In this document: positions 36,612 through 64,000 of the stretch, in pieces
Numbering within the stretch: the stretch's first letter is position 1
How the letters are laid out: each line of letters starts with the position of its first letter
Assembly: GCA_002748425.1 (NCBI GenBank)
Contig: PDSJ01000025.1
Coordinates: forward strand, 22,605 to 86,604
Length of the DNA stretch: 64,000 bases
Direction: 5' to 3'
Source: a candidate division KSB3 bacterium
GTDB lineage: Bacteria > Moduliflexota > Moduliflexia > Moduliflexales > Moduliflexaceae
The notes under the pieces: generated by a model
Seen by the model: only the letters and a program-made list of their open reading frames with translations
The model's database searches: none
What the model was told of the DNA's origin: nothing
Position numbers and translations under genes: made by a program

Positions 36612-36967
36612 ACTGTCCCCCTCCTTATTGCTGAGATGAACACATCGTGAGCGATACGCCATCAGACAGTGAATATCGCACAGAATAATACATAAATTTA
36701 AAATTTTACTGTCAACGTTTCCATCAGTCAAGAAAAAAATTCACTCATTCTGAATATTTTTATTGCGATCCCTTCAAAAAAAAACCTCCTTCTGAAGAAT
36801 CGAAAGCCGATGGGAAACAGTTTGATATCCCCATTTGAGACTTCACTTCACGATGAAACAATTTTTTTGTTGACATTTTTGTCATAAGGCAAGTCATAGT
36901 GTTATTTTCACAATTTATCTTTTTGATTTTATGGATGAATACAAGATGGATAGAATGGAGGCATTCG

Positions 36968-38011
36968 ATGCAACCCAGCAGTCATCCATATTCTTTTATC
37001 TCAATATTCAGACAATGGCGAAAACTGTTGCTCACCTGCTTCGTCCCTTATCTGCTGGCGTTCTCTCCAGAACTCATCAACGACATCGATATTGTGTCAA
37101 TTCGTGAGATACGTATTGCTCAAAAAGATGGGGAGCCTCTGCTGGATACGACGATCGTGATTCGTAACAGTGGAGCGAATACAATTAAATTTACAAATTG
37201 TACGTTCGAGTTGGCAGTGGCAGCAGAGCATTCCGAAGAGCTATTTCTTGGAACAGCTCAGACCGAAGAAATACTTTTACAGGGCAGGGAAGCAAAATCC
37301 GTTGATTTTGTCGATTCCGACGTGCGTCTTGCCATCCGGCCGGGAACCGCTTTGCCCACCTTGGCCCAAACGCTCGTCTCGACGCCTGCAATTAACCGAT
37401 TGATGACCCAGGCCACCCCACAACTTCAATTACATCTCCGTGGAAGATTCGATGTCGGTTTGAAGGCCGAACGGGCATGGGGCTATCAACAGGGAGTGAG
37501 AATCGATTGGCTTGTGACGCCTGAAATACACAACACAGTACTTGCTTCGGCCATCAAATCCATGCTTTCCGGCACCGTATCAAATACTGCAACACCCGCT
37601 GACAGAAAGATATCGCAGATTCACGGGCTTCATGAAAAAACCGTCCCCCCATCGTCTGCTTCACAAAATTCGTATATTGTCTTGTTTGGCTCCAATCAAT
37701 CGAACATGGATCAAGACGCGAAAGTCAACTTAGCAGCATGGTGGAAAGGACATCAAGAGAATTCGGGCCAAAAGGCGTTGTACCTAGAGGGACACGGGGA
37801 TTTAAGTGGGACTGACAGGGGGAATCAGAACATGTCTCTGAAACGCGTACGTGCCGTATATGATTATCTTTTTTACGATCTTGGAGTCACGGCACACCAT
37901 GTCGTCATGACAGGTTTTGGGAAAACCCGCCCGCTCACCACTGATAGCAGCCCGGAAGCGCAAGCTGCCAACCGAAGAGTCGAAATCTTTATCAGGCCCA
38001 TAGAACCATAG
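36968..38011 (+). CDS. OmpA-family protein with N-terminal WHy/LEA_2-like domain (paralogue 1 of 4)
   Basis: C-terminal OmpA_C-like region (RVRAVYDYL…GFGKTRPL…NRRVEIFI). The N-terminal domain is shared with 38048-, 39456- and 44935-CDSs. The ORF is open from GTG 36899, and the ATG at 36968 has a GGAGG SD. Confidence 0.65.
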   Translation: MQPSSHPYSFISIFRQWRKLLLTCFVPYLLAFSPELINDIDIVSIREIRIAQKDGEPLLDTTIVIRNSGANTIKFTNCTFELAVAAEHSEELFLGTAQTEEILLQGREAKSVDFVDSDVRLAIRPGTALPTLAQTLVSTPAINRLMTQATPQLQLHLRGRFDVGLKAERAWGYQQGVRIDWLVTPEIHNTVLASAIKSMLSGTVSNTATPADRKISQIHGLHEKTVPPSSASQNSYIVLFGSNQSNMDQDAKVNLAAWWKGHQENSGQKALYLEGHGDLSGTDRGNQNMSLKRVRAVYDYLFYDLGVTAHHVVMTGFGKTRPLTTDSSPEAQAANRRVEIFIRPIEP

Positions 38012-38047
38012 AACATTGACGCACGAAGAACATATAAGGAGAGCCAG

Positions 38048-39334
38048 GTGTCACCACTGCTTTGGAAAAAGGGCTGTGTTGCAGTAGTATGCTGTAGTGC
38101 GATGGTTATTATGGGCTTCTCTTTCTCAGTGATCAATGGTTTGGATCTGCGGTCTGTTCGGGATATACGCGTTTATGAGGAACAAGGATATGTAATGCTT
38201 GAAGCGTTGGTGACAATTCGCAATAGCAGCGGAAAGACGGTTCATATCAAAAATGCTCGTTTCACGCTGGTCGTTATGCCCGATGAGCACAGTAGCCATC
38301 CTCTCGGAGAACTCCCTGTCGAAGAGGCGTTAATCCCATACGCACCTGAAGGCGATGCAGCACATGATGATGTTGTCATACCGATTCTTATGAAGCTCGG
38401 CTCAAACCGATCTGCGCTCCGCGCACTCGCAGAGGCCTTGCAACACACATTGTCGCACAACGATCGCCAGCGCCTCTCATTAGGGCTAAAAGGTGCTCTC
38501 GATCTTGGCATACAGGACAGAGGCAGCTGGGTCTATGAAGAACGTTTTACTCTTGACTGGACGCTCTCTCCGGAGCTCGAAACCGCCCATCTTAACGATG
38601 TGCTCCAATCTGTGATCAACCCACCATCCCAAACTTCTCGTGTCGCCCTGACAGCATCTCCGACTGAAATGCCGACTCCGCAACCTGTTCCAGTCCCGCC
38701 AACGCCTACAGTGAATTCAACGGTAATGCCGAAAATCGAAATCGAAGCAGAAAGAGGGCTCGATGGCGTCTGCCTGAGAGAGGTATGCAATGAATGCAAT
38801 ATTCCGTGCAACGTCTGCCAAAAGCTGCTTCAAAGTACAGAGCATAAGAGCTATCCCGACGAAGACACTCTTCGCCGAGCTCTCTCGGCTTCTTTTAGTA
38901 CCGACATGCCGGCGCTGAAAAAAAATGCTATGACATGCCTCACAGAAGAATGTCAAATCCGAAAATTGGTCGTCTATTTCCGCTTTGATGAAAGCCTTAT
39001 CGAGAACTTGGAAGAGTATCCCCACCAGTTAGAGAAAGTGGCGACGTGGGCAAATCAACACACAGTAATTAAAGAGCCTTTGATACTGTATATTAACGGC
39101 TATGCTGATATTCGAGGGACAGCAGTCTATAACCTTCAACTCTCGATAAAACGTGCTGAATCGGTCTATCGTTACTTGACCCAACATTTCCCTGTTCAAT
39201 GGAATAGAGACGAGTGCGTGGTTCAAGGATTCGGAGAACAATTTTTAGTTTCACAGGGAAGCGACGAACTGTCTCATCAACAGAACCGGCGGGTCGAATT
39301 ATATCTCGCTCGCCGGTCAACACGACCGAAATAA
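38048..39334 (+). CDS. OmpA-family protein with WHy/LEA_2-like domain, PT linker and Cys-cluster (paralogue 2)
   Basis: C-terminal YINGYADIRGT…LSIKRAESVYRYL…NRRVELYL is OmpA-like. The Cys cluster is CLREVCNECNIPCNVCQ. GTG start with an AAGGAG SD. Confidence 0.65.
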   Translation: MSPLLWKKGCVAVVCCSAMVIMGFSFSVINGLDLRSVRDIRVYEEQGYVMLEALVTIRNSSGKTVHIKNARFTLVVMPDEHSSHPLGELPVEEALIPYAPEGDAAHDDVVIPILMKLGSNRSALRALAEALQHTLSHNDRQRLSLGLKGALDLGIQDRGSWVYEERFTLDWTLSPELETAHLNDVLQSVINPPSQTSRVALTASPTEMPTPQPVPVPPTPTVNSTVMPKIEIEAERGLDGVCLREVCNECNIPCNVCQKLLQSTEHKSYPDEDTLRRALSASFSTDMPALKKNAMTCLTEECQIRKLVVYFRFDESLIENLEEYPHQLEKVATWANQHTVIKEPLILYINGYADIRGTAVYNLQLSIKRAESVYRYLTQHFPVQWNRDECVVQGFGEQFLVSQGSDELSHQQNRRVELYLARRSTRPK

Positions 39335-39455: not shown

Positions 39456-40265
39456 ATGAAAAAGTCGATCCTTTTTGTCTGTGCCGTTACGTTGTCGCTG
39501 GCGGGAATCGTATCAGCAGGATACGCAGATACGGTTGAGCTGATCGATCATCTCAGTATTGAAAAAATTGTCAGTGTTGAGGTACGCCCGCTCTTTATCA
39601 TCACTAAGCAGAGCTTTATCGGACTTCGAGGAGAAAAGGTGCCGGAAAATATTCTTTCAAGCCCGAATCTGCAAGCATTGACAGATCAGAAGTTTGATGG
39701 CCGTGAGGTCTTTGTCGCTGCGTTGGAGCAGGCGCTTGGCACAGCCGTGTTACACCAGAAGGTGCAAAACAATTCGATAAAAACCTTATTACTGCGCCAC
39801 GCCAAACAGCATCCGTCATCGCGCAGCTCGTATTATTTGGATGTCGTTGTCGATATTCTGAATAACAACGACATTGATCTCAAATTGACCGAATGCACCT
39901 TCGATTTTTTCATTCACGATGAAGAGGCGATCGGTGAGATGACTAAAATTGGAACCGATGAATTTCAGAAAGGGAAAGAAATTTACCTGACTGCCAACCC
40001 GACAAGCGAAGCGGGAAAGGTTGCGCACGTGAAATTCGAAGTCGCAATGGGGACCGATAAGAATGCGGTCTTCGATACAGTAGCACATCTGCTCAACTTT
40101 ATAGGAAATCCGAAAGATGGGGACTATCTCTTCATTAATGGGCGCTTTAACCTCGGCATGAAGTCGAAAAAAGGCTGGACCTATGGCGAAGCAATCCGTG
40201 TCGACTGGATGTTCTGCCCAACCATGCAGCAACAGCTTCCGCTTAGCGAGTGTTTTGTGAAATAG
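39456..40265 (+). CDS. Secreted WHy/LEA_2-like domain protein (paralogue 3)
   Basis: Signal peptide MKKSILFVCAVTLSLAGIVSA. Motifs NNNDIDLKLTECTFDFFI and INGRFNLGMKSKKGWTYGEAIRVDWMFCP are shared with the other paralogues. Confidence 0.6.
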   Translation: MKKSILFVCAVTLSLAGIVSAGYADTVELIDHLSIEKIVSVEVRPLFIITKQSFIGLRGEKVPENILSSPNLQALTDQKFDGREVFVAALEQALGTAVLHQKVQNNSIKTLLLRHAKQHPSSRSSYYLDVVVDILNNNDIDLKLTECTFDFFIHDEEAIGEMTKIGTDEFQKGKEIYLTANPTSEAGKVAHVKFEVAMGTDKNAVFDTVAHLLNFIGNPKDGDYLFINGRFNLGMKSKKGWTYGEAIRVDWMFCPTMQQQLPLSECFVK

Positions 40266-40349
40266 CGCTCCAGCTCGCGATCAGGAGGTCGGGATTTCCA
40301 AGGGGGATTCCGGCCTCAAGCAGCTTTTTTGCATTCCGTTCTATGGACA

Positions 40350-43253
40350 ATGGATAAACACGACACAAACAGGCTACACATCAAACAGGTTGATGTCGAG
40401 AAAATTCCTCTGAGCCCTAATAAAGTTCTGTACCACATTAGTGACCGGTTTCTTATCAACGATCTTGATGATGAGGGGAAGGAGATTTGGAAAGAGGTTC
40501 AGCCTGGAGAAAACGTCTATTTAGGCCAGGAGCACTTGGTCTTTCCTCCCCAGATATTTTTTGGGAACGAACGCATTACTCTCAGTGCATACGATGTCTA
40601 TTGGGCTAAAACCTTTCGTAAGGGATTCTTTTCAGCGGAGAAGAGGGTCTTTTGCAATCAGATCCCTTTTCGAGCCGAGCCCGGCACACTGACGGGAATC
40701 ATGGGGCCCTCTGGTGCCGGAAAAACCGTTCTGCTGAACCTGTTAAGCGGCTATATATGTTCTCCTCGTAATTATGGGCAGGTCTTTATTAATGGGAGTT
40801 ACGACGTGCATAAAGAGCGCCGAATTCTGGGTCGGACGATCGGATATGTTCCGCAAGACGATACGCTGATTCCTCAACTCACTGTCCAGCAATCGCTAGA
40901 TTACTGTTTTCAGCTGCGCTATTCCGGCGTACCGAACAATTTACAGCAGCATATCATTGAAGACGCCTGTCAAAAGGCGGGATTCTCCAGAGAAAGCCTG
41001 CCAGATTTACTCGCAGCAAAAATCGGATCGCCTGACGAAAAAACTCTGAGCGGCGGAGAGCGCAAGCGCGTGAATATCGCCCATGAGTTGATTCGCCACC
41101 CCTTGCTGCTGTTTCTGGATGAACCCACATCCGGGCTTTCGTCAGTCGATGCCGACACGGTAACCCAGTCCTTAAAAGAGTTATGCACACGGACCAATAT
41201 TACGATTATTCTCACAATCCATCAGCCGAGCCGCGAATCATTTGATTTACTCGATCGTCTGCTGATCGTGAACCAGGGAGGCAATCTTGCGTATCTGGGC
41301 GATCCGCAAGACGCTGTGGCATATTTTGCGGGGCACGCTGGCATGACCTATCAGGCCCGACAGAACCCTGCTGAATTTATTTTACGCGCTCTGAACAGGT
41401 GGACAGCCTCATTAGCCGCCTCAAACAGCGTCACTGCACTGTCTCCTGAAAAAAGTATTACAGAGGCGTATTATCGCCAACCCGGATATTTTTCATTCAA
41501 CTTGACAGAATCGCTACTGGAAACTCTTCGGGATCAGGGAATGGCGTCTGAGGCCTTAGAACGGCTTGCTCCGCTGAAAAACCGGCGATTTCTCTGGAGA
41601 TCGGAGTATCGCAAAACCCTGAAAACGGCTTTAGGGCAGGGGTATGATGTGGAACAACGCGAGGTCCTCCGTCAGGTCGTTCAGAAAGGACATCCTGTCC
41701 GTTTGTCTGATATCCATCAAGAACGACTGCGTGATATTCCAAACCTGAGTACGTCATTCTTTCAGCAATTCCGAGTCTTGTTCCGCCGGAATCGGTCCGT
41801 GACTCATGCCGAGATCAAGACCCGGCTTTTTCAATCCTTTCAGCCCATCGCAATCGCTCTGCTAATGCTGCTCGCATTTTCCTGGTATTCACAGGATTAT
41901 TACAGCGAAGACATTTTTGCCAGGGTCGGCTGCTATTTCACCCAGAAGGTCAAGCAAGGCCAACAAATTCGGACCTGGAAAGATTTGCCTATTGCGAAAG
42001 CGCAGGCATACTCTCAACCACATCTGATGAGCGAGGGAGCGGCCAACCGTCGAGCGGCTATCTTTTTCTTACTTGTCGCTGCCTGCATCTGGCTCGGCAT
42101 CATCAATTCGTGTCAAGAAATTGTCGCTGAACGTACCGTCGTCAAACGGGAAGCCAAAAGTATTGTACGCATTTTTCCCTATCTCGTCGCAAAAATCATC
42201 TTTTTGGGATACATTTGTCTGAAACAGAGCCTGCTCTTATTGGCGATCATCTTTTTACCCAACATGCTTCTGACTACTGAGCGCTGGCGGCCGCTTTTCT
42301 CTGAAGGCTTCCGGAACCTTCTGCTAAAATTTCAGCTTTTCCCCAAAGCCAACTTCTTCTACGGAGCGGCCATTCTTGCGATTCTGTTTATCACCACCTG
42401 TGTGGCGTCATGGATGGGCTTAGGCATCTCGGCATTTGCACCGACTCCAAAAACCGCATTAACGATGGTTCCACTGTTGATTATCCCCCAATTATTGTTG
42501 GGAGGGCTTATCCGCCCGATCAAAGATATTGGGCGTCCGGAGAGCATCATGCTGACGCCGCAGGCCTTTTCGGAATTACGCCGGCACGTGCCGGATACAA
42601 TTCTGGACCAGCTTCAGGACTTCAAAAACCGTCCTTTTGCCAGAGAGCATGATTTTGTAGTCGGAATCCGTAGTCGAATCGGCGATAACGCCATGGCAGA
42701 CTATCGAGACATGCTGGTTGAACAGGCCCGCGTAACGACTCGCTGGGATCGAGCGCTCTTTTACGCCGGCGGCCTTCATCATCTGATGCTGCAAAAATGG
42801 GCTTTTAAAGCGCTCTTGCTTTATGACTCTCTCGGGAGGCTGCGCGTCCTGAAAAAAATTGTAGATTTCGACCGTTACCGGGAATATGAATATATTCAGT
42901 TTGAGGAACAGAGGCTCGTGGAAATGTTTTTCCCCGTGTCATTAGATAGCGCATATTATACGGCGCAGGAATATCAGAATTTCCTTGCAGACTTTCCGGA
43001 TGCAACAACAATGCTTCAGGACATTATCCACTTCGACAGGGTCGGAAACGTGTCTCTTCAGCTCTCAGATTTATCTGAAAGGGAACGCCAGGCTCTTCCT
43101 CGAGGCTCAGAAGACAATATCCTGGCGCACCGCGCACCGAAGCGCCAGATTTATGCTCTATTAACGCATACGTTTATCATCATAGTTGTGCTCTACGGAT
43201 TTTTTGTGCTTGTCCCGACCTATTGGTGGCTGCGAAAAAGCTTACTGACCTAA
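40350..43253 (+). CDS. ABC transporter, fused ATPase plus ABC-2-type permease (ABCG/White-like) with roughly 100-aa N-terminal extension
   Basis: Walker A GPSGAGKTVLLN, signature LSGGERKRVNIA, Walker B LLFLDEPTSGLS, then about 500 aa of multi-TM domain. The ORF is open from TTG 40329. Confidence 0.85.
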   Translation: MDKHDTNRLHIKQVDVEKIPLSPNKVLYHISDRFLINDLDDEGKEIWKEVQPGENVYLGQEHLVFPPQIFFGNERITLSAYDVYWAKTFRKGFFSAEKRVFCNQIPFRAEPGTLTGIMGPSGAGKTVLLNLLSGYICSPRNYGQVFINGSYDVHKERRILGRTIGYVPQDDTLIPQLTVQQSLDYCFQLRYSGVPNNLQQHIIEDACQKAGFSRESLPDLLAAKIGSPDEKTLSGGERKRVNIAHELIRHPLLLFLDEPTSGLSSVDADTVTQSLKELCTRTNITIILTIHQPSRESFDLLDRLLIVNQGGNLAYLGDPQDAVAYFAGHAGMTYQARQNPAEFILRALNRWTASLAASNSVTALSPEKSITEAYYRQPGYFSFNLTESLLETLRDQGMASEALERLAPLKNRRFLWRSEYRKTLKTALGQGYDVEQREVLRQVVQKGHPVRLSDIHQERLRDIPNLSTSFFQQFRVLFRRNRSVTHAEIKTRLFQSFQPIAIALLMLLAFSWYSQDYYSEDIFARVGCYFTQKVKQGQQIRTWKDLPIAKAQAYSQPHLMSEGAANRRAAIFFLLVAACIWLGIINSCQEIVAERTVVKREAKSIVRIFPYLVAKIIFLGYICLKQSLLLLAIIFLPNMLLTTERWRPLFSEGFRNLLLKFQLFPKANFFYGAAILAILFITTCVASWMGLGISAFAPTPKTALTMVPLLIIPQLLLGGLIRPIKDIGRPESIMLTPQAFSELRRHVPDTILDQLQDFKNRPFAREHDFVVGIRSRIGDNAMADYRDMLVEQARVTTRWDRALFYAGGLHHLMLQKWAFKALLLYDSLGRLRVLKKIVDFDRYREYEYIQFEEQRLVEMFFPVSLDSAYYTAQEYQNFLADFPDATTMLQDIIHFDRVGNVSLQLSDLSERERQALPRGSEDNILAHRAPKRQIYALLTHTFIIIVVLYGFFVLVPTYWWLRKSLLT

Positions 43254-43274
43254 GGTCAACGAAAGAGGAAAACG

Positions 43275-44093
43275 ATGACAATACTCCCGGAGCCGGTTCG
43301 GTTTACGTCACAGGAATATGAACGTTTTTTAGACAATTATCCTCATGTCGAACGGGCGTTATCTGATCCCTTTATCAGCGAAGAAGGAGAAACGATCCCT
43401 TTAATCAAACATGTCAACGAGGGAGTATTGATCTATCTCGATCTCCTTTCCTGCGAGCAGGAGAAAGAACTTGGCGCTGCCGCTTTACGCGAACTCAACA
43501 AACGTCTTTTATCAGAAAGAAACTATCACCCCAAAATACACATTGCAATACTCGGAATCACGCTTGCTACGATGATCGCCATCGGATGGAGACTGTTTTT
43601 TCTCCAAGATGTACGGGAACCTCCCTTGGCGACACCCACAGCAATTCCGACGCCGGTTCACACGTCGGCTCCGCCGCGCCCTGTGCCAACGCTGCGTCCA
43701 ACTTTTAGCCCGATACCGACAGCAAAACCGATTCCGACCTTTACTCCAAAGCCGAGATCGACTCCGACGGTGAAGGCGACACCCAAACCTCTTTACATCA
43801 GTGGAGTGTATGTACAAGACGCCAACAAAAATTTTGTTCCTGAACTTGACGGGAAATACTTGGTCAAACCTCTCGAAGTCCTGACACTTGAAGTACAACT
43901 GGAACATTCTGAGCATCGAGAGTTCTCGATAGAATATACACCAATGTACGGCACACTGCAAGCCCCGTCACGCTATATTGCACCCAATAAGCCCGGTGAG
44001 TTCGATTTGATCGTCGTGAAGGTCAGTGATGCTGAAAGCGGACTCCTGCTCGCTCAGGAGAGCGTCAAAATCAAGATTATCGATTCTTATTAA
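43275..44093 (+). CDS. Membrane-anchored Pro/Thr-linker protein with C-terminal beta-domain 'Y'
   Basis: TM segment (IAILGITLATMIAIGW), a PT-rich linker, and a C-terminal approximately 95-aa domain homologous to the C-terminus of the next CDS. Confidence 0.5.
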   Translation: MTILPEPVRFTSQEYERFLDNYPHVERALSDPFISEEGETIPLIKHVNEGVLIYLDLLSCEQEKELGAAALRELNKRLLSERNYHPKIHIAILGITLATMIAIGWRLFFLQDVREPPLATPTAIPTPVHTSAPPRPVPTLRPTFSPIPTAKPIPTFTPKPRSTPTVKATPKPLYISGVYVQDANKNFVPELDGKYLVKPLEVLTLEVQLEHSEHREFSIEYTPMYGTLQAPSRYIAPNKPGEFDLIVVKVSDAESGLLLAQESVKIKIIDSY

Positions 44094-44181: not shown

Positions 44182-44907
<726 letters not shown>

Positions 44908-44934
44908 ATACAATTAAGGAACAGGAGGATGATC

Positions 44935-46107: not shown

Positions 46108-46197
46108 ACCTCTACCTGTAACGGATTGGAGGAATCGGTTCTGTTCCATTCTCCTCTTCGTTACAGACAGACAATATTCGGCTGGATTCAAGAACGT

Positions 46198-53773: not shown

Positions 53774-54538
53774 ATGCTCCGATGTACTGTTGAGAATATT
53801 AGCCTTGAACGCAACCACGACTTTAAATTGTGTATCCCGAGCCTTGAAGTCTGCACAAAAGGGCACAATGCCATAACCAAACTACCCCTTATGGGAAAAA
53901 GCGGAGCTGGCAAAAGTACGTTACTCAACCTGATGGCAGCGGTTGAATGGCCGGATACGGGAGGGATTTCCTGGGAGTTTCCAGATCGGGACGCGCCGAT
54001 CACCTGGTCTAAAAATGGTCCTTCCCCGGCACAAGTGCGCTTGCTGCGCCGAAGATATTTCGGATTTGCCTTTCAGGACAGTACCTTACTGACACACATG
54101 AGCGTGCGGGAGAACTTGTCCTATCCGCTAATTTTAAACGGCTTGCCGCCGTGCCAGGCTTATGAAGCCGCCTGGAATGCACTGGATCGGGTGCTGCTTG
54201 ATGATGAGCGTTCCTATAAAAACGAACTGTTCAGACAGTTTCCGTCGAAACTTTCAGGGGGGCAACGCCAGCGCACAGCGCTGGTGCAGGCCATGATTCA
54301 CAACCCCTGTGTGCTCTTTGCCGATGAACCTACCGGCAGTCTGGATCGCGCAACGCGCAAGCAAGTGATGCAATCCCTCTATAATTGGGTCGATGACCAA
54401 CGTTACTGCGGAAAACGCCTGCTGCTCTGGGTGACGCATCATGAAAACGATCCCTGCGATGCCGGTGCTCAATGGATTCTCAAGGTGGATTCCGGAAGTC
54501 ATACCCTGCTTCCATTCAATTGTCACGAAACGCAGTAA
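53774..54538 (+). CDS. ABC transporter ATP-binding protein (LolD/MacB/FtsE-like)
   Basis: Walker A GKSGAGKSTLLN, signature LSGGQRQRTALVQA, Walker B VLFADEPTGSLD. Confidence 0.85.
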   Translation: MLRCTVENISLERNHDFKLCIPSLEVCTKGHNAITKLPLMGKSGAGKSTLLNLMAAVEWPDTGGISWEFPDRDAPITWSKNGPSPAQVRLLRRRYFGFAFQDSTLLTHMSVRENLSYPLILNGLPPCQAYEAAWNALDRVLLDDERSYKNELFRQFPSKLSGGQRQRTALVQAMIHNPCVLFADEPTGSLDRATRKQVMQSLYNWVDDQRYCGKRLLLWVTHHENDPCDAGAQWILKVDSGSHTLLPFNCHETQ

Positions 54539-56452: not shown

Positions 56453-57868
56453 ATGATGACAAAATCAGGACAGACTGGATTATACGCCTCCATCTTGATG
56501 ATTCTTATGACTATCTGCCTTTCACAACACGTCTGTGCTCAGCCTTCCGTTGTGCTGATTGCGAAGCCCAAAACGCACACAATTACTCTTGGCGAACGCC
56601 CGGAGAAGATCGTGCTCAAGGCCCGTACCAGCGGCGAAGTTGAGTTTCTGTGGGAACTGGACGGACCTGGATCATTTGAGGGTGATGCAACGACGCGGGA
56701 ACTCGTGTATCTTCCGCCGTCGTCTATAACGGCCGACAGCACGGAAGTCACAATCTCAGTAACGGTCAACACTACACGAGGCGAATCCGCCAGCGATCGC
56801 ATAACGTTCGAGCTTCGTGAACCTGTCGAGAGTCCTTTCCCCACGGCGACGCCGGTTTCGGAAACGGTTCCCCCTTCCGAGTCCCTCGAATCATCCCCAA
56901 AGGCCGGCAATCTCTATGTGCTTATTCTGGGGGCAGAAGAGTATCAGGATGAACGTATTCAGCCGATTCAGTTTGCTCATCAGGACGCAGAGGCTTTGTA
57001 CGAAGCCTTCATAGACCCGGATATCGTCGGAGTTCCGGAAGAGCGGGTGAAGATGGTTTTCGGGCCTGACTTCATTGATAGAAATATTAAACGAACGTTG
57101 GGAAAATGGCTGTCGGATCGTGTGACGGACGAGGACCTGCTTCTGATCTATTATACCGGATATCAGGCGCAAGAGAACGCAGAGTACTACTGGCTGACCT
57201 TCGATGCAGAGCTTGATGACCTTTTCAGCACAGCGGTCAGTGAGGAAGAATTCACAGAAATGCTCGAGCGTTTGGCACCGAAAGCTGCGATCTTTTTAGT
57301 TGACGCTGCGCCTTTTGCTGCAGAAACCTCTGAGGAAGACGAAGCAGCGTCGGAGGAGATTAGCCTCTCAGCGTTTCAGGTGTTTTCAGAAGCACGACGG
57401 CTACTCATCCAGGCGTCTGACGGCATGCGCTTCTCCCAGCGTCTGACAAAACAGCAGCACGGAGAATTCGGCTATCTGCTCCTGCAAGCTTTTCAGGGCA
57501 ATGCTGCTTCATCCATCAACGGCCAGCTCACGTTTGCCGAACTGTGGACCTATCTTAAAAAACAGACAGAGAACAACGAAGAGAGCTTGCAGCCTGTACT
57601 CCGGGGGAAGCGCGATCTCGACATCGTGCTGATGGCTGCGAGAGCAGAAAACATCGCGTCAGACAATTCTGATGAAACAGCTTCCATCGAAATTTCAAGA
57701 GACGACACCGGAAAAGAACGGATTATTGAAATTTACCGCCACGGCGACATTTCAGCGGCACAATTCAAAAAAGCCCTTGATATTCTTCAATCAGGAGAAA
57801 CAGATCAAATCCTCGATGATTTTTTACAGGGAACAATTTCGCTTGAAATATTTTCGGAAATTTTTTAG
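56453..57868 (+). CDS. Secreted GPG-domain protein with catalytically degenerate caspase-like (C14) domain and conserved C-terminal tail
   Basis: AAGGAG SD and signal peptide. GPG motif EFLWELDGPGSF…YLPPSS. The caspase-like region LYVLILGAEEYQ…LLLIYYTGYQAQ…AIFLVDAAPF is homologous to the 61611 CDS, but His is replaced by Tyr and Cys by Ala. Confidence 0.6.
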   Translation: MMTKSGQTGLYASILMILMTICLSQHVCAQPSVVLIAKPKTHTITLGERPEKIVLKARTSGEVEFLWELDGPGSFEGDATTRELVYLPPSSITADSTEVTISVTVNTTRGESASDRITFELREPVESPFPTATPVSETVPPSESLESSPKAGNLYVLILGAEEYQDERIQPIQFAHQDAEALYEAFIDPDIVGVPEERVKMVFGPDFIDRNIKRTLGKWLSDRVTDEDLLLIYYTGYQAQENAEYYWLTFDAELDDLFSTAVSEEEFTEMLERLAPKAAIFLVDAAPFAAETSEEDEAASEEISLSAFQVFSEARRLLIQASDGMRFSQRLTKQQHGEFGYLLLQAFQGNAASSINGQLTFAELWTYLKKQTENNEESLQPVLRGKRDLDIVLMAARAENIASDNSDETASIEISRDDTGKERIIEIYRHGDISAAQFKKALDILQSGETDQILDDFLQGTISLEIFSEIF

Positions 57869-57922: not shown

Positions 57923-60544
57923 ATGACAGCCTTACAAAACAGCAGAAACATACGTTGGAAAATTTTTGTCGGGATGGCAAGCCTTTCTCTCTTATTCAGT
58001 TCGACAGGATGGGCGGAGAAGATAGTCTGGCATGACTACAAATACCCATTAAAGGAGACGATTCGCGTGTTTCAGCATGAAGAATATGCCATCGAAAGCG
58101 TTGATGTTCAGGTCTCTCTTCCCTCACAATTTTTGCGCCATCATAAGGAGATCGAACTTCTCGTGTATCTGAGAAGTCGAACCGTTACGTCTAAAGGCAA
58201 AACCGGATTTCACGATTTCTCCCCGCTGATCCGGGTGAATAATGCATTCATAAAGCGTTATAAAATTCCCGTCAAGAAGACACCCAGCCGGCAGCACCAG
58301 GTCGTACGCATTGCACGCAAGGATTTAAAGCCTGGGGGCAACACACTGCAATTCACCTTCAAATGGCATCACAGTGGCTGGTCCTGTTCTGGAAAGGGTT
58401 GTGGATATGAAATTACCAAGATGGTTTTTAAAGATGCTCCAAAACCGACTCCCACTCCCACTCCGACCAGAACGCCCACGCCGCGTCCCCGTAAAAAGAC
58501 AACGGTTCTGAGGCCGACTGCGACGCCCACGCCTTCTCCAGTTATCAGTCTGTTGGAACAGGCCGATAGATACGTTGAGAAAAAGTGGTTTCTAACGCCC
58601 AAGGAGACAAATGCCTTTGATACGTATAAGCGAGTTCTTCGTATATCGCCCTCTAATATGCATGCCAGAAAGAAACTCTATGAAATGATGAAAGGCTACA
58701 AAAGCTGGGGAGATAATAATTACAAAGAGGGCGCGCATGAAAAAGCAAAATCCTATTACGAGCGCTACATGACTATTGCACGATATGTGAAGGATGAGCT
58801 TCGTTCCCAGTTCTCCGGACAGATCGAACAGGATTTTACAATGGTGTCGGACCGTCTGGAACTGATTGAAAATCCACCGACGCCGACACCAAGCCCGGAG
58901 CCGCTTAGTGACGATCTGCCAGTCATTGAAATCTCAACGGAACTGCCTGAAAAATGTGAGTCAGAAGAGCTGACCTTGCAGGGAAGTGTCAAGGACGATC
59001 TGGGAGTAACGGGTATCTACTTCTTCCTTAATAGCGAAGCACATGAAGAGCTCACCTTCCCGGAGGACGAATCGCTCGTGGAACAACCCTTTGAAACGAC
59101 CTTTTCGTTAAGCCCCGGCGATAACACCATCAGCATTGAAGCTCGCGATACCAGTGGGCAGCGTATGACCTGGGACACGCGTCTCACGAGACAACTCCCA
59201 CCTGAAACACCGCCTGTTGCGCCGACGCCACAGCTTCCCCTTCTCGACGAATATCCTGACATTATCTTTCTTCCGGAACTTCCCTCTGAAACACAAGAGC
59301 CGTACATACATGTCGAGGGCCATGTGAAGGACGACCGAGGAATTCAGGATTTTAAAATCAGCATCCGCCGTCCGGATTCAACTTGGTTTGAGGTACTGAG
59401 AAATGTAACTTTTGACGGAACGAACTTTTCAGCAGATATTCGTCTGGAAATCGGCGAGACAACGCTCATGCTCGTGGCCGCAGACACACTCGGGCAATTG
59501 ACGAAAAAAGAAGTGATGATTCAGAGAAGATCGGAAACTAAAGCGCCAGATCAGGACGACGGGAACTCGGCTTCTGAATTTGGAGAACACGCGCCTGAAA
59601 ACACAGCGCCAGCCGTCAAGCGTGTTGTCATTCTTGTGGCTGCCGAAGAGTATCTCGATGCTGCAATACCGCCCTATCAATGCGCTGAGAACGATGTACA
59701 CAAAGTCTACGAGTTCTTCACTGATCCTGAACGCGGCGGGCTTCCGCAAGAACAGGTCATACTGTTGACAGGAACTGACGTCACCGAGCGAACACTGAAA
59801 AAGACTTTCGGAGAATGGCTCAGGCAGCAGGCAAAAGCCGGGGATATCAGCCTGCTGGTCTATTTCATCGGCTATGGGGGCTGCGAACACGATCGACGCT
59901 ATTGGCTCAGTCATGACACAACTCTTGATGATATTTTCAGTACTTCACTGGATTTACGAAAAATCAACACATTACTTTCACGGATTCCGACGCAATTCGT
60001 AACAATTTTTCTCGATACGGTGTTCCTGGGCGGAGAACAGTCCGGCGCAGCGGAGCCTTTGTGGAAAATTCTATCAGGAGAAGGGCGGGCCATTGCAGCC
60101 GCTTCACACGGAAAGACCCCGCATATCTGCGATGATGAACAGTCGGGCAGCTCCTTCACATCATCATTTCTCCAGGGACTCGCAGGAGAAGCAGACCTCA
60201 ACAGCGACGGAAAGATTTATAGCCCGGAATTATGGGAATTTATGAGTCGGAGCCTGACGAATGCAGCCGACGGTGCAGAAAGGCTCCATCCAGTGCTTGT
60301 GGGAGAACTGCCTCACGAATTGCTCGTGACGCTGCCGTTGCCAGAGGAAAAGCTGTCAGCATCCGGCGAAAAAAAGCGCCCGGATGCCAAAGATGCCATT
60401 ATCGACATCTACCGCAACGGCCATATTTCGGCCGATCAGTTCAAACGAGCGCTGCAGATCTTAAAAAACGGCGAAACAGATCGACTCCTTGAAGACTATC
60501 TTGACGGAAAGATTCCACTTGATATCTTTAAGGACACTTTTTAA
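57923..60544 (+). CDS. Large secreted protein with PT linkers, degenerate caspase-like domain and the same conserved C-terminal tail
   Basis: Signal peptide and PT linkers (PKPTPTPTPTRTPTPRP). The caspase-like region VVILVAAEEYLD…SLLVYFIGYGGCEHD…VTIFLDTVFLGG has no His/Cys dyad. The tail IIDIYRNGHISADQFKRALQILKNGETD is shared with the 56453 CDS. Confidence 0.6.
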   Translation: MTALQNSRNIRWKIFVGMASLSLLFSSTGWAEKIVWHDYKYPLKETIRVFQHEEYAIESVDVQVSLPSQFLRHHKEIELLVYLRSRTVTSKGKTGFHDFSPLIRVNNAFIKRYKIPVKKTPSRQHQVVRIARKDLKPGGNTLQFTFKWHHSGWSCSGKGCGYEITKMVFKDAPKPTPTPTPTRTPTPRPRKKTTVLRPTATPTPSPVISLLEQADRYVEKKWFLTPKETNAFDTYKRVLRISPSNMHARKKLYEMMKGYKSWGDNNYKEGAHEKAKSYYERYMTIARYVKDELRSQFSGQIEQDFTMVSDRLELIENPPTPTPSPEPLSDDLPVIEISTELPEKCESEELTLQGSVKDDLGVTGIYFFLNSEAHEELTFPEDESLVEQPFETTFSLSPGDNTISIEARDTSGQRMTWDTRLTRQLPPETPPVAPTPQLPLLDEYPDIIFLPELPSETQEPYIHVEGHVKDDRGIQDFKISIRRPDSTWFEVLRNVTFDGTNFSADIRLEIGETTLMLVAADTLGQLTKKEVMIQRRSETKAPDQDDGNSASEFGEHAPENTAPAVKRVVILVAAEEYLDAAIPPYQCAENDVHKVYEFFTDPERGGLPQEQVILLTGTDVTERTLKKTFGEWLRQQAKAGDISLLVYFIGYGGCEHDRRYWLSHDTTLDDIFSTSLDLRKINTLLSRIPTQFVTIFLDTVFLGGEQSGAAEPLWKILSGEGRAIAAASHGKTPHICDDEQSGSSFTSSFLQGLAGEADLNSDGKIYSPELWEFMSRSLTNAADGAERLHPVLVGELPHELLVTLPLPEEKLSASGEKKRPDAKDAIIDIYRNGHISADQFKRALQILKNGETDRLLEDYLDGKIPLDIFKDTF

Positions 60545-60545
60545 T

Positions 60546-61544
60546 ATGCACCGAATGAAGACAACAAGAGCTCAAACATTGAACATAACGTGCTTCTGCC
60601 TTTTGACCGCACTTGTCTGCAATGTGAATTCTGTGCATGCGCAAGATATTTTGCTGGAGATTGAGGTGGAACCAAACCTCCGAACGCTGCGACTCGACGG
60701 AAAGATGCAAGACATTTCTCTGGTCGCTCAGAGCACTCGACAAGATCTCGCGTTTAAATGGACATTGCAGGGGCCGGGTAACCTTTTAGGGGATGATGAA
60801 AGTCCCGGAATTTTTTATCTGCCACCGAAAACACTCGATGCCGGGATGCCGTCGCAAGCCAGCGTTGTCTTGAACGTCCATGACGATCGAGGCAGCCAGG
60901 CCAGCAAAAAAATTATTTTCCAGTTGCTCAATGCTCCAGAACCGTTATCACCTTCCGAAGCGGAAGAGCCTCCCCCCACGCCTGACAGATTATCCCCTTC
61001 TCACTCCACTCCGCTGGTATTTCATATCAGCTGTCGGTATCATCCGTCTCATGAAAAAACATTTCGTCCCATAAACGAGGGAAGCGTTCTCCACTCCGGC
61101 GATCATTATCGCATTGTCTTTACCCCGCAACAAGACGCATACGTCTATATTTACCAGATCGACGACAGCGGACTGGTCTTTCAACTTTTTCCGATGGATC
61201 GTTTTAGGGGAAGGCCAGTGAATAATTTCAATCCGGTACAAGCCGGGAGGGACTATTATGCGCCGGGCAAAGAAATGTCTTTTGTACTGGATGAACTGAC
61301 TGGAACCGAACGCATATATTTTCTTGCATCCCGCAAACAAAACCGTTTTTTAGAAGAACGTTACGAGCAACTGCAAAAGGAGCCACCATCGCAACAGGAG
61401 GCCCTGTTTCATGAGCTTCTGCGACAGGTGATGGACCAGCACGGCATCGAATATACGAAACCCCACGATTTTGACGCCATACAGGATAGTCTGGAGAGTT
61501 TATGTCAAGGTTGTGTGTACACGTTATCGTTCGAGCATAGATAA
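60546..61544 (+). CDS. Secreted GPG-domain protein with C-terminal DUF4384-like beta domain (tentative)
   Basis: Signal peptide. GPG motif AFKWTLQGPGNL…FYLPPKT. The C-terminal GDHYRIVFTPQQDAYVYIYQIDDSGLVFQLFP…PGKEMSFVL pattern resembles DUF4384. The ORF is open from 60489, overlapping the previous gene. Confidence 0.5.
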   Translation: MHRMKTTRAQTLNITCFCLLTALVCNVNSVHAQDILLEIEVEPNLRTLRLDGKMQDISLVAQSTRQDLAFKWTLQGPGNLLGDDESPGIFYLPPKTLDAGMPSQASVVLNVHDDRGSQASKKIIFQLLNAPEPLSPSEAEEPPPTPDRLSPSHSTPLVFHISCRYHPSHEKTFRPINEGSVLHSGDHYRIVFTPQQDAYVYIYQIDDSGLVFQLFPMDRFRGRPVNNFNPVQAGRDYYAPGKEMSFVLDELTGTERIYFLASRKQNRFLEERYEQLQKEPPSQQEALFHELLRQVMDQHGIEYTKPHDFDAIQDSLESLCQGCVYTLSFEHR

Positions 61545-61610
61545 AAGCTGAGTATATGTCGAATTTCACAGGTAGACAGCATGTTTTTTACGCAAAGGAG
61601 GGACACTCTC

Positions 61611-63593
61611 ATGACAAAATCAATAGCTGGTCTGGCAGGATGTCTGTTTACAGCCTTCTGCGTTCCAGGACTGCTTTTTGCCCAAGGTGGTGTCAAGGAT
61701 ACTGATTTTTACAGTAAAAGCTGGGCAGTCGTGATCGGAATTAATGATTATCAAAACCATCAGTATAATCTGGAATATGCGGTCAACGACGCGGAAGCCA
61801 TGGCGCTGCGCTTCGAACACATGGGTTTTGAAGAGGTCATCCCTGTCATCGATGCAGACGCGACCCGGGAAAATATTCTGCAATTACTGACAGTAGAATT
61901 GCCTCAAAAAATCGAGGAAAACGACCGACTGGTGATTTTTTATGCCGGACACGGGGCAAGCGGTCAACTTATGAATCCGGACGAGTGGATCAGCGGACAG
62001 GACCGGGTGGGCTTTCTGGTGCCCCATGACGCGGTCTTTGACTTCAAGAGTCTCGACGACAACGCGATCGCGATTGAGAATTATCAGAGCTTTCTGGAAG
62101 AGACGCATTTTATCTCACTCGAAGATTTACGGAACGTGTCGGATTCGATTCGCGCCAAACAGATCCTCTACATTCTTGACGGCTGCTACTCCGGCTTTCT
62201 GGATCCTGCGGCCTATAAATTCCGGTCAGCTCGACGGACGGCGTTTGTCGGGGAATCGAGCGCGACAGCTCATGGAACGCAGCGGGGCTTAGAGATAAAT
62301 CCTCCAAGGCCCGCTGACAATGAGTCGCAACGAGGCATGAAGCTTTCAGTCGACGATTCCGGGCCGCTCCACGAAGAAAAAAAATTGGCCTCCCGGCCGA
62401 CGGTTCAGATCCTGACGGCCGGAAGTTCCGGAGAGCCGGTTGTAGAAAAAGGCGGACACGGCATTTTCACGTTCTATCTTTTACGGTCATTGGACGGCTT
62501 TATTGACGATAACGCCAATTGCGTTGTGCGAGTCAGCGAGATGGCCTATTATCTCAGAGAAGTCGTGCCAAAAGCGTCAAGAGGTCAGCAAACGCCTTTA
62601 TTCGGACGTATCAGCGGCGAAGGGGATATGATTTTCGTGCCGTCAATCTGTAATCCTCTGGAGGAGAAAGATCTCGCAGCTCCGACAGCAGATTCAGACT
62701 GGCAGAAGGCCGAAGCCTACAAGGCCAAAACACAAGGAGGCTATAAAGAGCCAACGCACATCGTAGTGGATCACGCCCGTCATCTCTATGTCTTAGACAG
62801 CAAACGGCAAAAAATTTTTCAATTCGACAGCGCGGGAAATTTCTTGTCTGACGATTTCAGCTTTGTGCAAGACGGCAGGCAATGGATCCCGCATTCAATG
62901 GCTGTCAGAGCAAATGACGATCTCTGGGTATTTTACAAAGCCCCAGGCAAGCAGAAAGAGCCTGGGAAGATTCTTGTGTTTCAGCCCACTGGAGAGACTG
63001 GGGACAATTGGGCTGGAGCACTGGCGATCGATTCCTGCGATTTTGGCGAAAAGCCGTTTCCCTCCCAGGCCTTGATCGCCCTGGATTGGGAAGATAATCT
63101 CTTGCTGCTCGATCAGGAACAGGAGACTCACATGAAATGCGACAGTGACGGAATGTTGGTCCTGCAAAAAGGCCCGGAAGGCGACTATGCCCGTTTTAAA
63201 GGGGCTCAGGGAATGACGGTCGATAATTTCGGCTACCTTTACATCGCCAATACCGAAGGACACGGTATACAAAAATTTTTCGACGGACAATGGATCAAAA
63301 CCCGCTGGCCGCAATTGAAAGGAAATGATAAGCTGTACTTCAAACGTCCGCACGGGCTTGCAGTAGATCAGCAGCTCTTTGTGTATGTCGCAGATACTGA
63401 AAATCACCGCATTAAAAAATACACCAATAAAGGTGAAAAGCTTTTAAGCTGCTGGGGGAAAAAGAATGCTGCAAAGGGTAGCAAGTATGGTCAGTTCAAG
63501 AAGCCAAAGGATGTGGCTGTCAGTCCTGACGGGCGCTATGTGTATGTGGCGGATACAGGCAACAAACGCGTTCAACGTTTTATTAATCAATGA
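61611..63593 (+). CDS. Secreted caspase-like cysteine peptidase (C14, intact His/Cys dyad) fused to NHL-repeat beta-propeller
   Basis: AGGAGG SD and signal peptide MTKSIAGLAGCLFTAFCVPGLLFAQG. Caspase motifs WAVVIGINDYQ, VIFYAGHGASG (His) and ILDGCYSGF (Cys). C-terminal NHL-type repeats (YIANTEGHGIQKF, VYVADTENHRIKKY, VYVADTGNKRVQRF). Confidence 0.75.
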   Translation: MTKSIAGLAGCLFTAFCVPGLLFAQGGVKDTDFYSKSWAVVIGINDYQNHQYNLEYAVNDAEAMALRFEHMGFEEVIPVIDADATRENILQLLTVELPQKIEENDRLVIFYAGHGASGQLMNPDEWISGQDRVGFLVPHDAVFDFKSLDDNAIAIENYQSFLEETHFISLEDLRNVSDSIRAKQILYILDGCYSGFLDPAAYKFRSARRTAFVGESSATAHGTQRGLEINPPRPADNESQRGMKLSVDDSGPLHEEKKLASRPTVQILTAGSSGEPVVEKGGHGIFTFYLLRSLDGFIDDNANCVVRVSEMAYYLREVVPKASRGQQTPLFGRISGEGDMIFVPSICNPLEEKDLAAPTADSDWQKAEAYKAKTQGGYKEPTHIVVDHARHLYVLDSKRQKIFQFDSAGNFLSDDFSFVQDGRQWIPHSMAVRANDDLWVFYKAPGKQKEPGKILVFQPTGETGDNWAGALAIDSCDFGEKPFPSQALIALDWEDNLLLLDQEQETHMKCDSDGMLVLQKGPEGDYARFKGAQGMTVDNFGYLYIANTEGHGIQKFFDGQWIKTRWPQLKGNDKLYFKRPHGLAVDQQLFVYVADTENHRIKKYTNKGEKLLSCWGKKNAAKGSKYGQFKKPKDVAVSPDGRYVYVADTGNKRVQRFINQ

Positions 63594-63675
63594 GAATGCC
63601 GGGAATTGAGAGCTTGCAGAAAAAACAAGAGAGCTTGCAAGCCCCATTCTCATGCCTGACAATGGAGGAAAGATC

Positions 63676-64000
63676 ATGATCAATCGTCAAGTAATGAAGT
63701 CTGTCGCTTGTGTCGTGTTTGTAAGTTATGTATCAGTCTTTAACGCTGAGTGCATACAGGCAGCGGAGTTAAAGCTGCTGCCTGAACATTGGCTGTTGAC
63801 TGCCCAGGCCGGGGACACAACAGCCGTCATCGACAGTGTGGCCGGCAAAGAAGCGCAGCAAGCCGTGTATTCCAGTAAAATCCAGCGTCTTGAGGCCAAC
63901 ATCAACCGCAAGCGGGGCACCAGAAACACGTTGATGACAGTGACGGTCTCATCCGGTCTCATTGGAGTCGGTGTTGCACTCGGGGCTTCATCGATTTATG
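63676..64000 (+). CDS. Secreted hypothetical protein, N-terminal fragment (3' end outside window)
   Basis: GGAGG SD 7 nt upstream of the ATG. Signal-like MKSVACVVFVSYVSVFNAEC. Open to the window end. Confidence 0.45.
   Translation, partial: MINRQVMKSVACVVFVSYVSVFNAECIQAAELKLLPEHWLLTAQAGDTTAVIDSVAGKEAQQAVYSSKIQRLEANINRKRGTRNTLMTVTVSSGLIGVGVALGASSIY

Follow-up and report, generated by a model that had tools for sequence, protein, structure and literature searches.

A candidate type VII ABC branch with exported vWA partners within a multi-cassette envelope gene block of a candidate division KSB3 bacterium

Four ATP-binding cassette (ABC) systems of type VII occur in Escherichia coli, namely FtsEX-EnvC, LolCDE-LolA, MacAB-TolC and YbbAP-TesA; each is tied to a key envelope process, and in these systems ATP moves a periplasmic domain onto a dedicated partner (EnvC, LolA, MacA or TesA) with no carriage of a substrate across the membrane (PMC5985334, PMC7668044, PMC12646458). 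A second group of related systems, the vWA-MoxR "ternary" NTP-dependent conflict systems, was catalogued by Kaur, Burroughs, Iyer & Aravind in 2020, and neither ABC nor FtsX is mentioned in that catalogue (PMC7159879). Here, a stretch of 64,000 nucleotides from a candidate division KSB3 bacterium (Moduliflexota; assembly GCA_002748425.1, contig PDSJ01000025.1, positions 22,605 to 86,604), hereafter the window, was analysed, in which 18 co-directional genes (g1-g18) form a block of 27 kb. Genes g8-g13 of this block (46.1-56.3 kb), an operon-like unit designated cassette B, appear from their sequences to represent a new branch of type VII ABC systems with a von Willebrand factor A (vWA) protein, an FGE-like protein and a g9-type protein as partners. 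Nothing on cassette B was found in the literature searchable by domain combination or locus tag.

The distribution of cassette B was analysed in a species-level scan (one genome per species) with the family of the vWA protein g10, which gave 71 loci, 69 of them with a confirmed vWA gene of this family, and the region within 10 kb on either side of these 69 genes was searched by tBLASTn with all 17 complete block proteins. Homologues of g8, g9, g10/g11, g12 and g13 recur around the vWA gene, as does g4 through its nucleotide-binding domain (NBD) alone, and no homologue of g1-g3, g5-g7 or g14-g17 was found in this interval. Among the 51 vWA loci that are informative, having enough downstream sequence, 45 carry an ATPase gene and a permease gene directly downstream of the vWA gene, always in this order and all on one strand. 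Hidden Markov models (HMMs) placed a gene for an FGE-like protein and/or a protein with the C-terminal domain of g9 (g9C) upstream on the same strand in 46 (FGE-like in 35, g9C in 21). The hosts belong to Magnetococcales, Thiotrichaceae, Rhodobacteraceae (Rhodobacterales), Azospirillaceae/Rhodospirillaceae (Rhodospirillales), Hyphomicrobiales, Desulfobacteraceae and Saprospiraceae. The gene order is FGE-like/vWA/ABC/permease in Magnetococcales and g9/vWA/ABC/permease in many alphaproteobacteria, and both upstream partners are present in KSB3, Desulfobacteraceae, Thiotrichaceae and Sagittula. In the cultured roseobacter Sagittula stellata E-37 (locus L084), cassette B lies on a 404-kb conjugative megaplasmid (NZ_CP155730.1, 313055-322972), where the genes for an FGE-like protein, a g9-like hypothetical protein of 1068 aa, the vWA protein, the ABC ATPase and the permease follow one another with overlapping start and stop codons; the vWA, g9-like and permease genes are annotated as "hypothetical protein", and the FGE-like and ATPase genes carry generic family names. 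Downstream of this copy of the cassette lie four small hypothetical genes and a MotA/TolQ/ExbB gene.

A census of the same-strand flanks of the related loci revealed no recurrent additional family, with caspase, trypsin and OmpA not among the listed families, and no recurrent defence, protease or MoxR/AAA+ partner. Defence-like flanks were seen at single loci, including ThsB_TIR, TPR-S and Cas_APE2256 beside the cassette of Magnetococcus marinus MC-1 (L001), and AAA_15/AAA_21, a pair of a small vWA and a PP2C gene, and PhdYeFM beside that of Ca. Thiomargarita nelsonii (L003); these were not recurrent in the census. Conservation across the block is nested, cassette A (g1-g7) being rare, cassette B broad, g14/g15 lineage-restricted and g16-g18 neighbours, and the 27 kb is therefore best read as four parts. 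A preceding reading made from the letters and their open reading frames (the sequence-only reading) had taken the whole 27 kb for one candidate undescribed system. The single-system part of this claim was not supported, since only g8, g9, g10, g12 and g13 homologues recur in the 69 loci and cassette A is separable; the other part is supported for cassette B, the neighbourhood of which is absent from the searchable literature and from PMC7159879. The conservation of gene neighbourhood that it had looked to is broad for cassette B and rare for cassette A, and only in two nearer relatives are caspase and pseudo-caspase genes found with the core.

As judged from sequence and structural models, cassette B appears to resemble the type VII ABC superfamily (MacB/FtsX) in ATPase type, permease topology and periplasmic fold. 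As in MacAB-TolC, LolCDE-LolA, FtsEX-EnvC, YbbAP-TesA and BceAB, the ATPase is a separate LolD/FtsE-like protein, the permease has four transmembrane (TM) helices with a large periplasmic domain of Porter/Sabre-like fold between TM1 and TM2, and exported partners are encoded alongside. The ATPase g12 matches ABC_tran in Pfam (E = 5e-24) with intact Walker A (GKSGAGKST), signature (LSGGQRQR) and Walker B (LLFADEPT) motifs, and its best NCBIfam matches are the L_ocin_972 (bacteriocin) exporter, LolD, FtsE, DarD, DevA and MacB (E = 1e-32 to 1e-23), all under the equivalog cut-offs. In the permease g13, the start codon of which overlaps the stop codon of g12 (the gap between g11 and g12 is 2 nt), hydropathy indicates a first helix, TM1, at about residues 64-85 and a further three within residues 486-602, in agreement with the secondary structure of the AlphaFold2 (AF2) model. 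This model (pLDDT 78) matches LolE best in Foldseek (E = 1.3e-4), followed by BceB and YbbP, and its periplasmic domain superposes on those of MacB, LolC, LolE, YknZ and FtsX. These moderate fold scores fit the topology of g13, the type of its NBD partner and the FtsX (PF02687) matches recorded for its homologues P0122, P0124, P0129 and P0136 and for the Thiomargarita gene. Cassette B differs from the described type VII systems in three respects: the periplasmic domain of g13 has about 400 aa, roughly double what is usual; a vWA protein, an FGE-like lectin-fold protein and a member of an unknown family take the place of the usual partners; and the conserved core contains neither a MacA/HlyD adaptor nor an amidase activator, and neither a lipoprotein chaperone nor a two-component system.

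By sequence and model, g10 is a vWA protein with an intact metal-ion-dependent adhesion site (MIDAS), D335-x-T337-x-S339...D465 (DxTxS...D), in which D335, T337 and D465 do not vary, and S339 hardly does, across a 65-sequence alignment of the family. Its AF2 model (pLDDT 87, pTM 0.83) resembles integrin I domains, BatB (3ibs) and the NorD vWA domain in Foldseek, and its homologues match TssR_VWA and VWA in profile searches. The protein consists of a signal peptide, beta-rich (SH3-like) N-terminal domains, the vWA domain, a helical region and a C-terminal domain; the signal peptide together with about ten conserved cysteines predicts an oxidising, extracytoplasmic location, and N-terminal signal-like segments and conserved cysteines are likewise predicted in g8, g9 and g11. 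A search of 1.84 billion proteins gave 252 representatives of the g10 family (50% clusters, E <= 1e-30). The g10 product is identical to CSB45_02890 of a candidate division KSB3 bacterium, and the window corresponds, in reverse orientation, to a region close to one end of contig PDPS01000022.1 (GCA_002747525.1). The paralogous g11 corresponds to g10 at both ends, residues 4-368 of g10 aligning with 2-345 of g11 and 622-814 with 282-474 (BLASTP E = 1e-70 and 1e-64), and an additional g11-type gene is also present at loci L075, L076 and L033. Both proteins end in YWVPKEFLP-COOH (YWVPxEFLP; 52261-52290 in g10 and 53742-53771 in g11), with W807, P809 and P814 of the g10 terminus invariant in the 65-sequence alignment, and this end may be a docking or sorting tag. 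A phage origin was considered and rejected, as g10 gave no phage match.

The upstream partners combine constant C-terminal with variable N-terminal modules. The C-terminal domain of g8 matches FGE-sulfatase (Pfam E = 2e-16), and the FGE-like domains linked to the cassette form a distinct subfamily with the motif LLGNLREWS..C..LLGE[DN]Y..C..GFR. True FGE enzymes carry the catalytic Cys pair in an RGGS..CxxSYCxRYR signature. The RGGSW/CxxSYCxRYR signature was found neither in g8 nor in the recovered cassette-linked homologues, so that the g8 domain is probably non-catalytic. The g9C domain (about 280 aa) belongs to no known family; its HMM matches the product of the gene immediately before the vWA gene at 27 distinct genome loci (28 identifiers, L003 duplicating L021) in addition to L075-L077, and a profile search of the PDB gave no match. 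By eye g9C looked vWA-like, and a second vWA domain was considered for it; hhalign with the vWA profile of g10 gave nothing, nor did the profile search of the PDB, and the idea was rejected. The N-terminal modules of g8- and g9-type proteins are Trypsin_2 in L077, Ig-like in the window and absent in Magnetococcus.

Three nearer loci illustrate this variation. L075 (g10 identity 61%) carries g4, g5, g6, g7, extra Ig-like genes, g8-g13, a pseudo-caspase and a g15-like gene. In L077 (55%), trypsin-domain proteins bearing the g9 N-terminal module and a Trypsin_2+FGE-like protein are followed by g9, g10, g12, g13 and genes resembling g14 and g15. At L076 (49%) the core is joined by extra g11-like and g9-like copies, without a caspase. 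The FGE-like gene of the L076 cassette is immediately preceded by a gene for a 1006-aa Tubulin_2 (bacterial tubulin-like) protein (2115-5135), and Tubulin_2 was also seen once in the upstream flank census.

The vWA-MoxR conflict systems resemble cassette B in having a MIDAS-bearing vWA protein encoded beside an NTPase, in the caspase-fold, FGE-sulfatase ("FGS") and protease modules present in some lineages, in their variable appended modules and in their enrichment in morphologically complex bacteria (PMC7159879). In contrast, cassette B has as its NTPase an ABC ATPase that is paired with a membrane permease, with no MoxR/AAA+ or STAND NTPase, and the vWA protein and its partners are predicted to be exported, a non-cytoplasmic core being thereby predicted; cassette B thus lacks the MoxR ATPase that defines those systems. 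An envelope-associated vWA protein is also found in BatA/BatB of the Bacteroides aerotolerance (Bat) operon, BatB being the structural match of g10 mentioned above. The Bat operon combines a MoxR ATPase with membrane-anchored vWA proteins and, to our knowledge, contains no FtsX-type ABC, FGE-like or g9-type partner.

Cassette B may therefore be a type VII ABC mechanotransducer that drives a periplasmic vWA-centred complex, a reading for which we see an even chance. In this mechanism, which is inferred from the analogous FtsEX-EnvC and YbbAP-TesA, g12 would bind and hydrolyse ATP in the cytoplasm, and g13 would pass this on to its periplasmic domain, which would load, remodel or release a complex centred on the vWA protein. 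To this complex g8 and g9 would bind by their constant C-terminal modules, and the variable N-terminal ones (Ig-like in the window, trypsin-like elsewhere) would form lineage-specific sensing or effector ends. An ABC motor would in this way play, outside the cytoplasm, the role that MoxR ATPases have for cytoplasmic vWA proteins. In KSB3 and two nearer relatives the cassette is extended by g14 and g15, two caspase-fold proteins with dead dyads. The motor is always accompanied by a single vWA protein with a MIDAS and by one or two further exported proteins. Several observations weigh against this proposal. The FtsX (PF02687) match of g13 itself is sub-threshold (E = 0.0058; 17.1 bits, the cut-off being 25.5), six of the 51 informative vWA loci have no detectable ATPase/permease pair, and five are without both upstream partners. 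In addition, the proposal is built on gene order and analogy, through which a contact of g13 with g10, g8 and g9 is suggested, and MacB-type systems can also transport substrates, leaving an export role possible.

If the proposal holds, a further conserved type VII branch with its own exported partners would add a new envelope machine to those described, and would illustrate a way in which a MIDAS/vWA switch might receive its energy outside the cytoplasm. The vWA, lectin-fold and new-family partners have neither a specific Pfam family nor a curated name, and the g10 family comprises at least 252 clusters at 50% identity from several phyla. The pseudo-caspases and trypsin-like proteases that join the cassette in some lineages bear on the question of how bacterial caspase homologues function. 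Cultured carriers, including Sagittula stellata E-37, Magnetococcus marinus MC-1 and Amylibacter marinus, make the cassette directly testable.

The main rival explanation, which we consider possible and rather unlikely, is export and assembly: the FtsX-type ABC pump would extract or expel the neighbouring exported proteins, or a lipid or polymer bound by them, and thereby form a surface layer, sheath or matrix of adhesive nature, with the domains of vWA, lectin-like and Ig-like type acting as adhesins and not as a regulated switch. MacB, LolCDE and YbbAP move substrates out of the inner membrane or the periplasm (PMC5985334, PMC12646458), the partners are made of typical adhesin parts (vWA, Ig-like and lectin-like domains and Pro/Thr linkers), the adjacent cassette A encodes OmpA anchors, and several hosts are filamentous, sheathed or aggregating, such as KSB3, Thiomargarita, Parabeggiatoa and Paralimibaculum aggregatum. 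However, the conserved core contains no gene for a membrane-fusion protein (HlyD/MacA) or an outer-membrane factor, many hosts are unicellular cocci or rods (e.g. Magnetococcales and Rhodobacteraceae), and the strict one-to-one pairing of the motor with a single MIDAS-bearing vWA protein looks like that of a partner and not like a list of cargoes.

Table 1 Coordinates and predicted products of the block genes (positions in the window).
Gene	Position	Strand	Predicted product
g1	36899..38011	+	Exported; shared beta module and C-terminal OmpA-like peptidoglycan-binding domain
g2	38048..39334	+	g1 paralogue; signal/anchor, shared module, Pro/Thr linker, Cys-rich segment, OmpA-like domain
g3	39456..40265	+	Exported; helical N-terminal motif and shared module; no Pfam family
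g4	40329..43253	+	Fused ABC ATPase and ABC-2-type membrane domain (NBD-TMD); cassette A exporter
g5	43275..44093	+	Single-pass membrane protein; cytoplasmic N-terminus, Pro/Thr linker, external C-terminal domain common to g6
g6	44182..44907	+	Exported; "GPG" Ig-like module, Pro/Thr linker, g5-type C-terminal domain
g7	44929..46107	+	g3 paralogue with extra Cys-rich C-terminal domain; last cassette A gene
g8	46126..47589	+	Exported; two "GPG" Ig-like modules and divergent FGE-sulfatase (C-type-lectin-like) domain; first cassette B gene
g9	47649..49724	+	Exported; variable N-terminal domain, long Pro/Thr linker, conserved C-terminal alpha/beta domain (g9C)
g10	49846..52290	+	Secreted vWA protein; cassette B signature gene
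g11	52347..53771	+	g10 paralogue; N- and C-terminal domains kept, vWA and helical insert gone
g12	53774..54538	+	ABC ATPase of LolD/FtsE/MacB (type VII) kind
g13	54538..56328	+	FtsX/MacB-type permease; TM1, ~400-aa periplasmic domain, three C-terminal TM helices
g14	56453..57868	+	Exported pseudo-caspase; "GPG" Ig-like module, caspase fold, conserved C-terminal tail
g15	57923..60544	+	Exported multidomain pseudo-caspase
g16	60546..61544	+	Exported; "GPG" Ig-like module and DUF4384
g17	61581..63593	+	Exported caspase (C14) fused to NHL-repeat beta-propeller
g18	63652..64000 (partial)	+	344-aa exported or membrane protein; no Pfam family (gene calls on contig PDPS01000022.1)

The block as a whole appears to be a native stretch of the KSB3 chromosome in which separately conserved envelope cassettes stand head-to-tail. 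It comprises 17 complete plus-strand open reading frames (ORFs) across 36899-63593 and an 18th that opens at 63652 and exits the window (Table 1), with intergenic gaps of -1 to 124 nt, and the run of 18 consecutive co-directional genes described in the sequence-only reading was thereby recovered. Its view that nearly all products are exported or anchored also agrees with the hydropathy predictions, which gave an N-terminal hydrophobic segment in 14 of the 17 proteins and internal TM helices in g4, g5 and g13, with g12 a soluble cytoplasmic ATPase; the Pro/Thr linkers ascribed to nearly all of them were found in six (g2, g5, g6, g8, g9 and g15). All-against-all BLASTP bore out the recurrence of shuffled modules across several genes: one module is common to g1, g2, g3 and g7, the "GPG" Ig-like module occurs in g6, g8 (two copies), g14 and g16, a C-terminal module is common to g5 and g6 (E = 1e-9), g10/g11 and g14/g15 are paralogous (the latter with E = 1e-52 and 32% identity across 382 aa), and the NBDs of g4 and g12 are related. 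The repertoire named earlier, comprising FGE-sulfatase, vWA, caspase, DUF4384, NHL, pseudo-caspases and two ABC systems, was found by Pfam, NCBIfam and AF2. No significant Pfam family was assigned to g3, g5, g6, g7, g9, g10, g11, g14 or g15, and a search relaxed to E <= 5 added sub-threshold matches only for g6, g10 and g15. As also stated earlier, no MoxR, AAA+ or STAND domain was found in g1-g17 by Pfam, including the relaxed search.

Cassette A is a rare separate unit that is also found without an adjacent cassette B, and would consist of an exporter of the ABC-2 type together with exported accessory proteins, some of them OmpA-anchored. Its exporter g4 (ABC_tran E = 3e-26 and ABC2_membrane E = 1e-10 in Pfam) has the order of NBD and transmembrane domain (TMD) and the ABC2_membrane domain of ABC-2/ABCG-type exporters, and differs from them in a C-terminal extension of about 240 aa with an extra TM helix and in its conserved retinue of OmpA-anchored proteins and of exported proteins of unknown family. 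The OmpA domain (PF00691; cut-off 27.2 bits) was detected in g1 (E = 1.4e-12, 48.2 bits) and g2 (E = 7.7e-11, 42.6 bits), which are related to each other (BLASTP E = 5e-20); the Pro/Thr linker of g2 spans residues 204-226. The label "WHy-like" given earlier to the module of g1, g2, g3 and g7 found no support in sequence searches: g1 and g2 match OmpA alone at E <= 0.01, and a profile of 11 copies of the module matches no LEA/WHy (LEA_2) chain in the PDB. The proteins g3 and g7 share 49% identity by BLASTP, have no Pfam match even at E <= 5, and belong to a family with only six members among 5.8 billion clustered proteins, with contexts at L080/L081 and L082. The TM helix of g5 lies at residues 87-110 by hydropathy, and the ORF of g6 opens at 44026 with Met53 as the likely start and a signal-like segment at ORF residues 61-79.

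In L080/L081, a run of g1-, g3-, g4-, g5-, g6- and g7-like genes is kept at 36-56% protein identity and is followed by unrelated opposite-strand genes with no vWA cassette; the L080 contig ends just past a different ABC/FtsX pair. In L082, g1-, g2-, g7- and g3-like genes stand ahead of the g4-like gene. Homologues of g4 (44-55% identity) are present in L075, L080 and L082, those of g3 directly precede the ABC-2 gene in L080 and L082, and g5 is kept in L075 and L080. The ABC_tran/FtsX pair beside cassette A in L080 (15798-20638, minus strand) is different from that of cassette B, with 30% identity to g12, and after it come genes for TRL, FGE-sulfatase, Gly-zipper, PG_binding_1 and S41 peptidase proteins; the pairing of an FtsX-type ABC with an FGE-like protein may be a wider theme. 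An S41 peptidase gene with a PG_binding_1 gene next to it adjoins cassette A in L080 (10981-12846, minus strand), and the parallel with the S41 gene of the window is perhaps a coincidence. Within cassette A, a helical motif of about 50 aa in g3 (39591-39785) recurs weakly twice in g4 (41481-41680 and 42546-42730; z = 4.7-6.0 against shuffles), and the tail of g4 (42954-43022) resembles the N-terminus of g5 (43299-43367; z = 6.2 against shuffles); homology behind these resemblances is uncertain owing to topology.

Downstream of the permease gene, g14 and g15 are predicted to be catalytically dead from their sequences. Both match caspase_w_EACC1 in NCBIfam (E = 2e-16 and 1e-17), and at the dyad positions His is replaced by Tyr in both and Cys by Ala in g14 and Val in g15; their homologues in L075 and L077 likewise have no catalytic Cys. 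In g15 a beta-sandwich N-terminus, a Pro/Thr linker, TPR-like helices and Ig-like domains precede the caspase fold and a g14-type tail. Homologues of g14 lie 3' of the permease gene only in L075 and L077, and a search of metagenomes with the g14/g15 alignment gave one 5-kb locus with no informative flanks, indicating an extremely rare family. The tail, of about 48 aa (57721-57865 in g14, 60400-60541 in g15), is also present in three of the four homologues in L075/L077, has the motif IIEIYRxGxISAEQFKKALxILxxGExDQILEDFLxGKIxLExF, and gives weak EF-hand-like Pfam matches in g15 only.

The closest described relatives of the caspase-fold proteins are the prokaryotic orthocaspases, which have a His-Cys dyad as in g17 (PMC6426788, PMC7475262). 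PMC6426788 describes pseudo-orthocaspases in which Tyr and Ser replace the catalytic His and Cys, and g14 and g15 share the His-to-Tyr change with them. The papers recovered in the literature search all name FGE-sulfatase, and most name DUF4384, together with caspase homologues, as a mention that may refer to fusions or to neighbours. In contrast to the orthocaspases, g14, g15 and g17 carry signal peptides, and g14 and g15 have the distinctive conserved C-terminal tail and lie directly 3' of a type VII ABC permease gene.

The last genes of the run, g16-g18, appear to be lineage-specific, with a tie to cassette B no more than possible. DUF4384 was detected in g16 (Pfam E = 3.5e-13), a homologue of which (40% identity) adjoins cassette A in L080, and a DUF4384 gene is found near cassette B in L077. 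The protein g17 matches Peptidase_C14 (E = 3e-14) and NHL (E = 5e-24) in Pfam and the PADLOC caspase model (E = 2e-14), and with its intact His-Cys dyad (FYAGHG and LDGCYS) it is the sole dyad-bearing caspase of the block. The run ends with g18, and an APH/PapZ_C kinase-like gene comes next.

A more far-reaching version of a motor driving a vWA-centred complex takes cassette B as the extracytoplasmic counterpart of MoxR-vWA systems, in which the motor would bring the energy of ATP into the periplasm and so arm or fire a MIDAS-dependent vWA complex, and this complex would scaffold the pseudo-caspases and trigger the exported caspase in KSB3-like bacteria. We regard it as improbable; if true, it would represent an ATP-gated pathway of envelope sensing and proteolysis (immune or kin-recognition) without described precedent. 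The claim of the sequence-only reading, that all 18 genes form a single surface-sensing, conflict or programmed-cell-death system with the g17 caspase as proteolytic effector, is in our view decidedly improbable. The genes are tightly spaced and co-directional, the "GPG" Ig-like module spans the sub-blocks, L075 retains the g4-g15 order, DUF4384 genes adjoin cassette A in L080 and stand in the vicinity of cassette B in L077, trypsin-like proteases take the place of the Ig-like ends in L077, and the MC-1 and Thiomargarita loci adjoin TIR, TPR-S and AAA_15/21 genes. Set against this are the absence of g1-g3, g5-g7 and g14-g17 from the surroundings of the vWA gene at the 69 species-level loci, the occurrence of cassette A without a neighbouring vWA cassette, the flank census without a recurrent caspase, protease or defence family, the dead dyads of g14 and g15, and PADLOC, which recognised no system in the block and returned only generic caspase and ABC ATPase-like model matches. 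The shared modules, the recurring proteases of the nearer relatives and the DUF4384 genes near both cassettes leave a single system some probability in KSB3-like lineages. The evidence for a conflict or cell-death role is thin, and such a role stays an inference.

The composition of the block likewise shows no sign of a mobile island. GC content, codon usage, the tetranucleotide profile (correlation with the rest of the window 0.966; control 0.956) and GC at third codon positions (GC3, 0.52 against 0.53) agree with those of the rest of the window; a foreign island was therefore rejected, the comparison of GC and codon usage raised earlier revealed no difference, and the match with the first 36 kb indicates that the block is native and not recently acquired. 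The weakest alternative, a lineage-specific pile-up of duplicated envelope genes on one strand beside two unrelated ABC transporters, with no collective function, is very unlikely: it would fit the native composition, the extreme rarity of the g3/g7 and g14/g15 families and promoter and terminator scans with the same counts as in shuffled sequence, but the order and adjacency of cassette B are kept across phyla and the synteny of cassette A is kept at 36-56% protein identity in L080, which excludes chance for the sub-blocks, though not for their juxtaposition.

The region upstream of the block contains ordinary chemotaxis, acyl-AMP ligase, S41 peptidase and tRNA genes. MCP, CheA, two tandem AMP-binding (acyl/aryl-CoA ligase-like) genes and two minus-strand tRNAs, tRNA-Thr(CGU) and tRNA-Phe(GAA), lie within 22688-26153, 29126-32225 and 32234-32439, and a gene for an S41/CtpB-like PDZ peptidase (32522-33883, minus strand) is located about 3 kb before the block.

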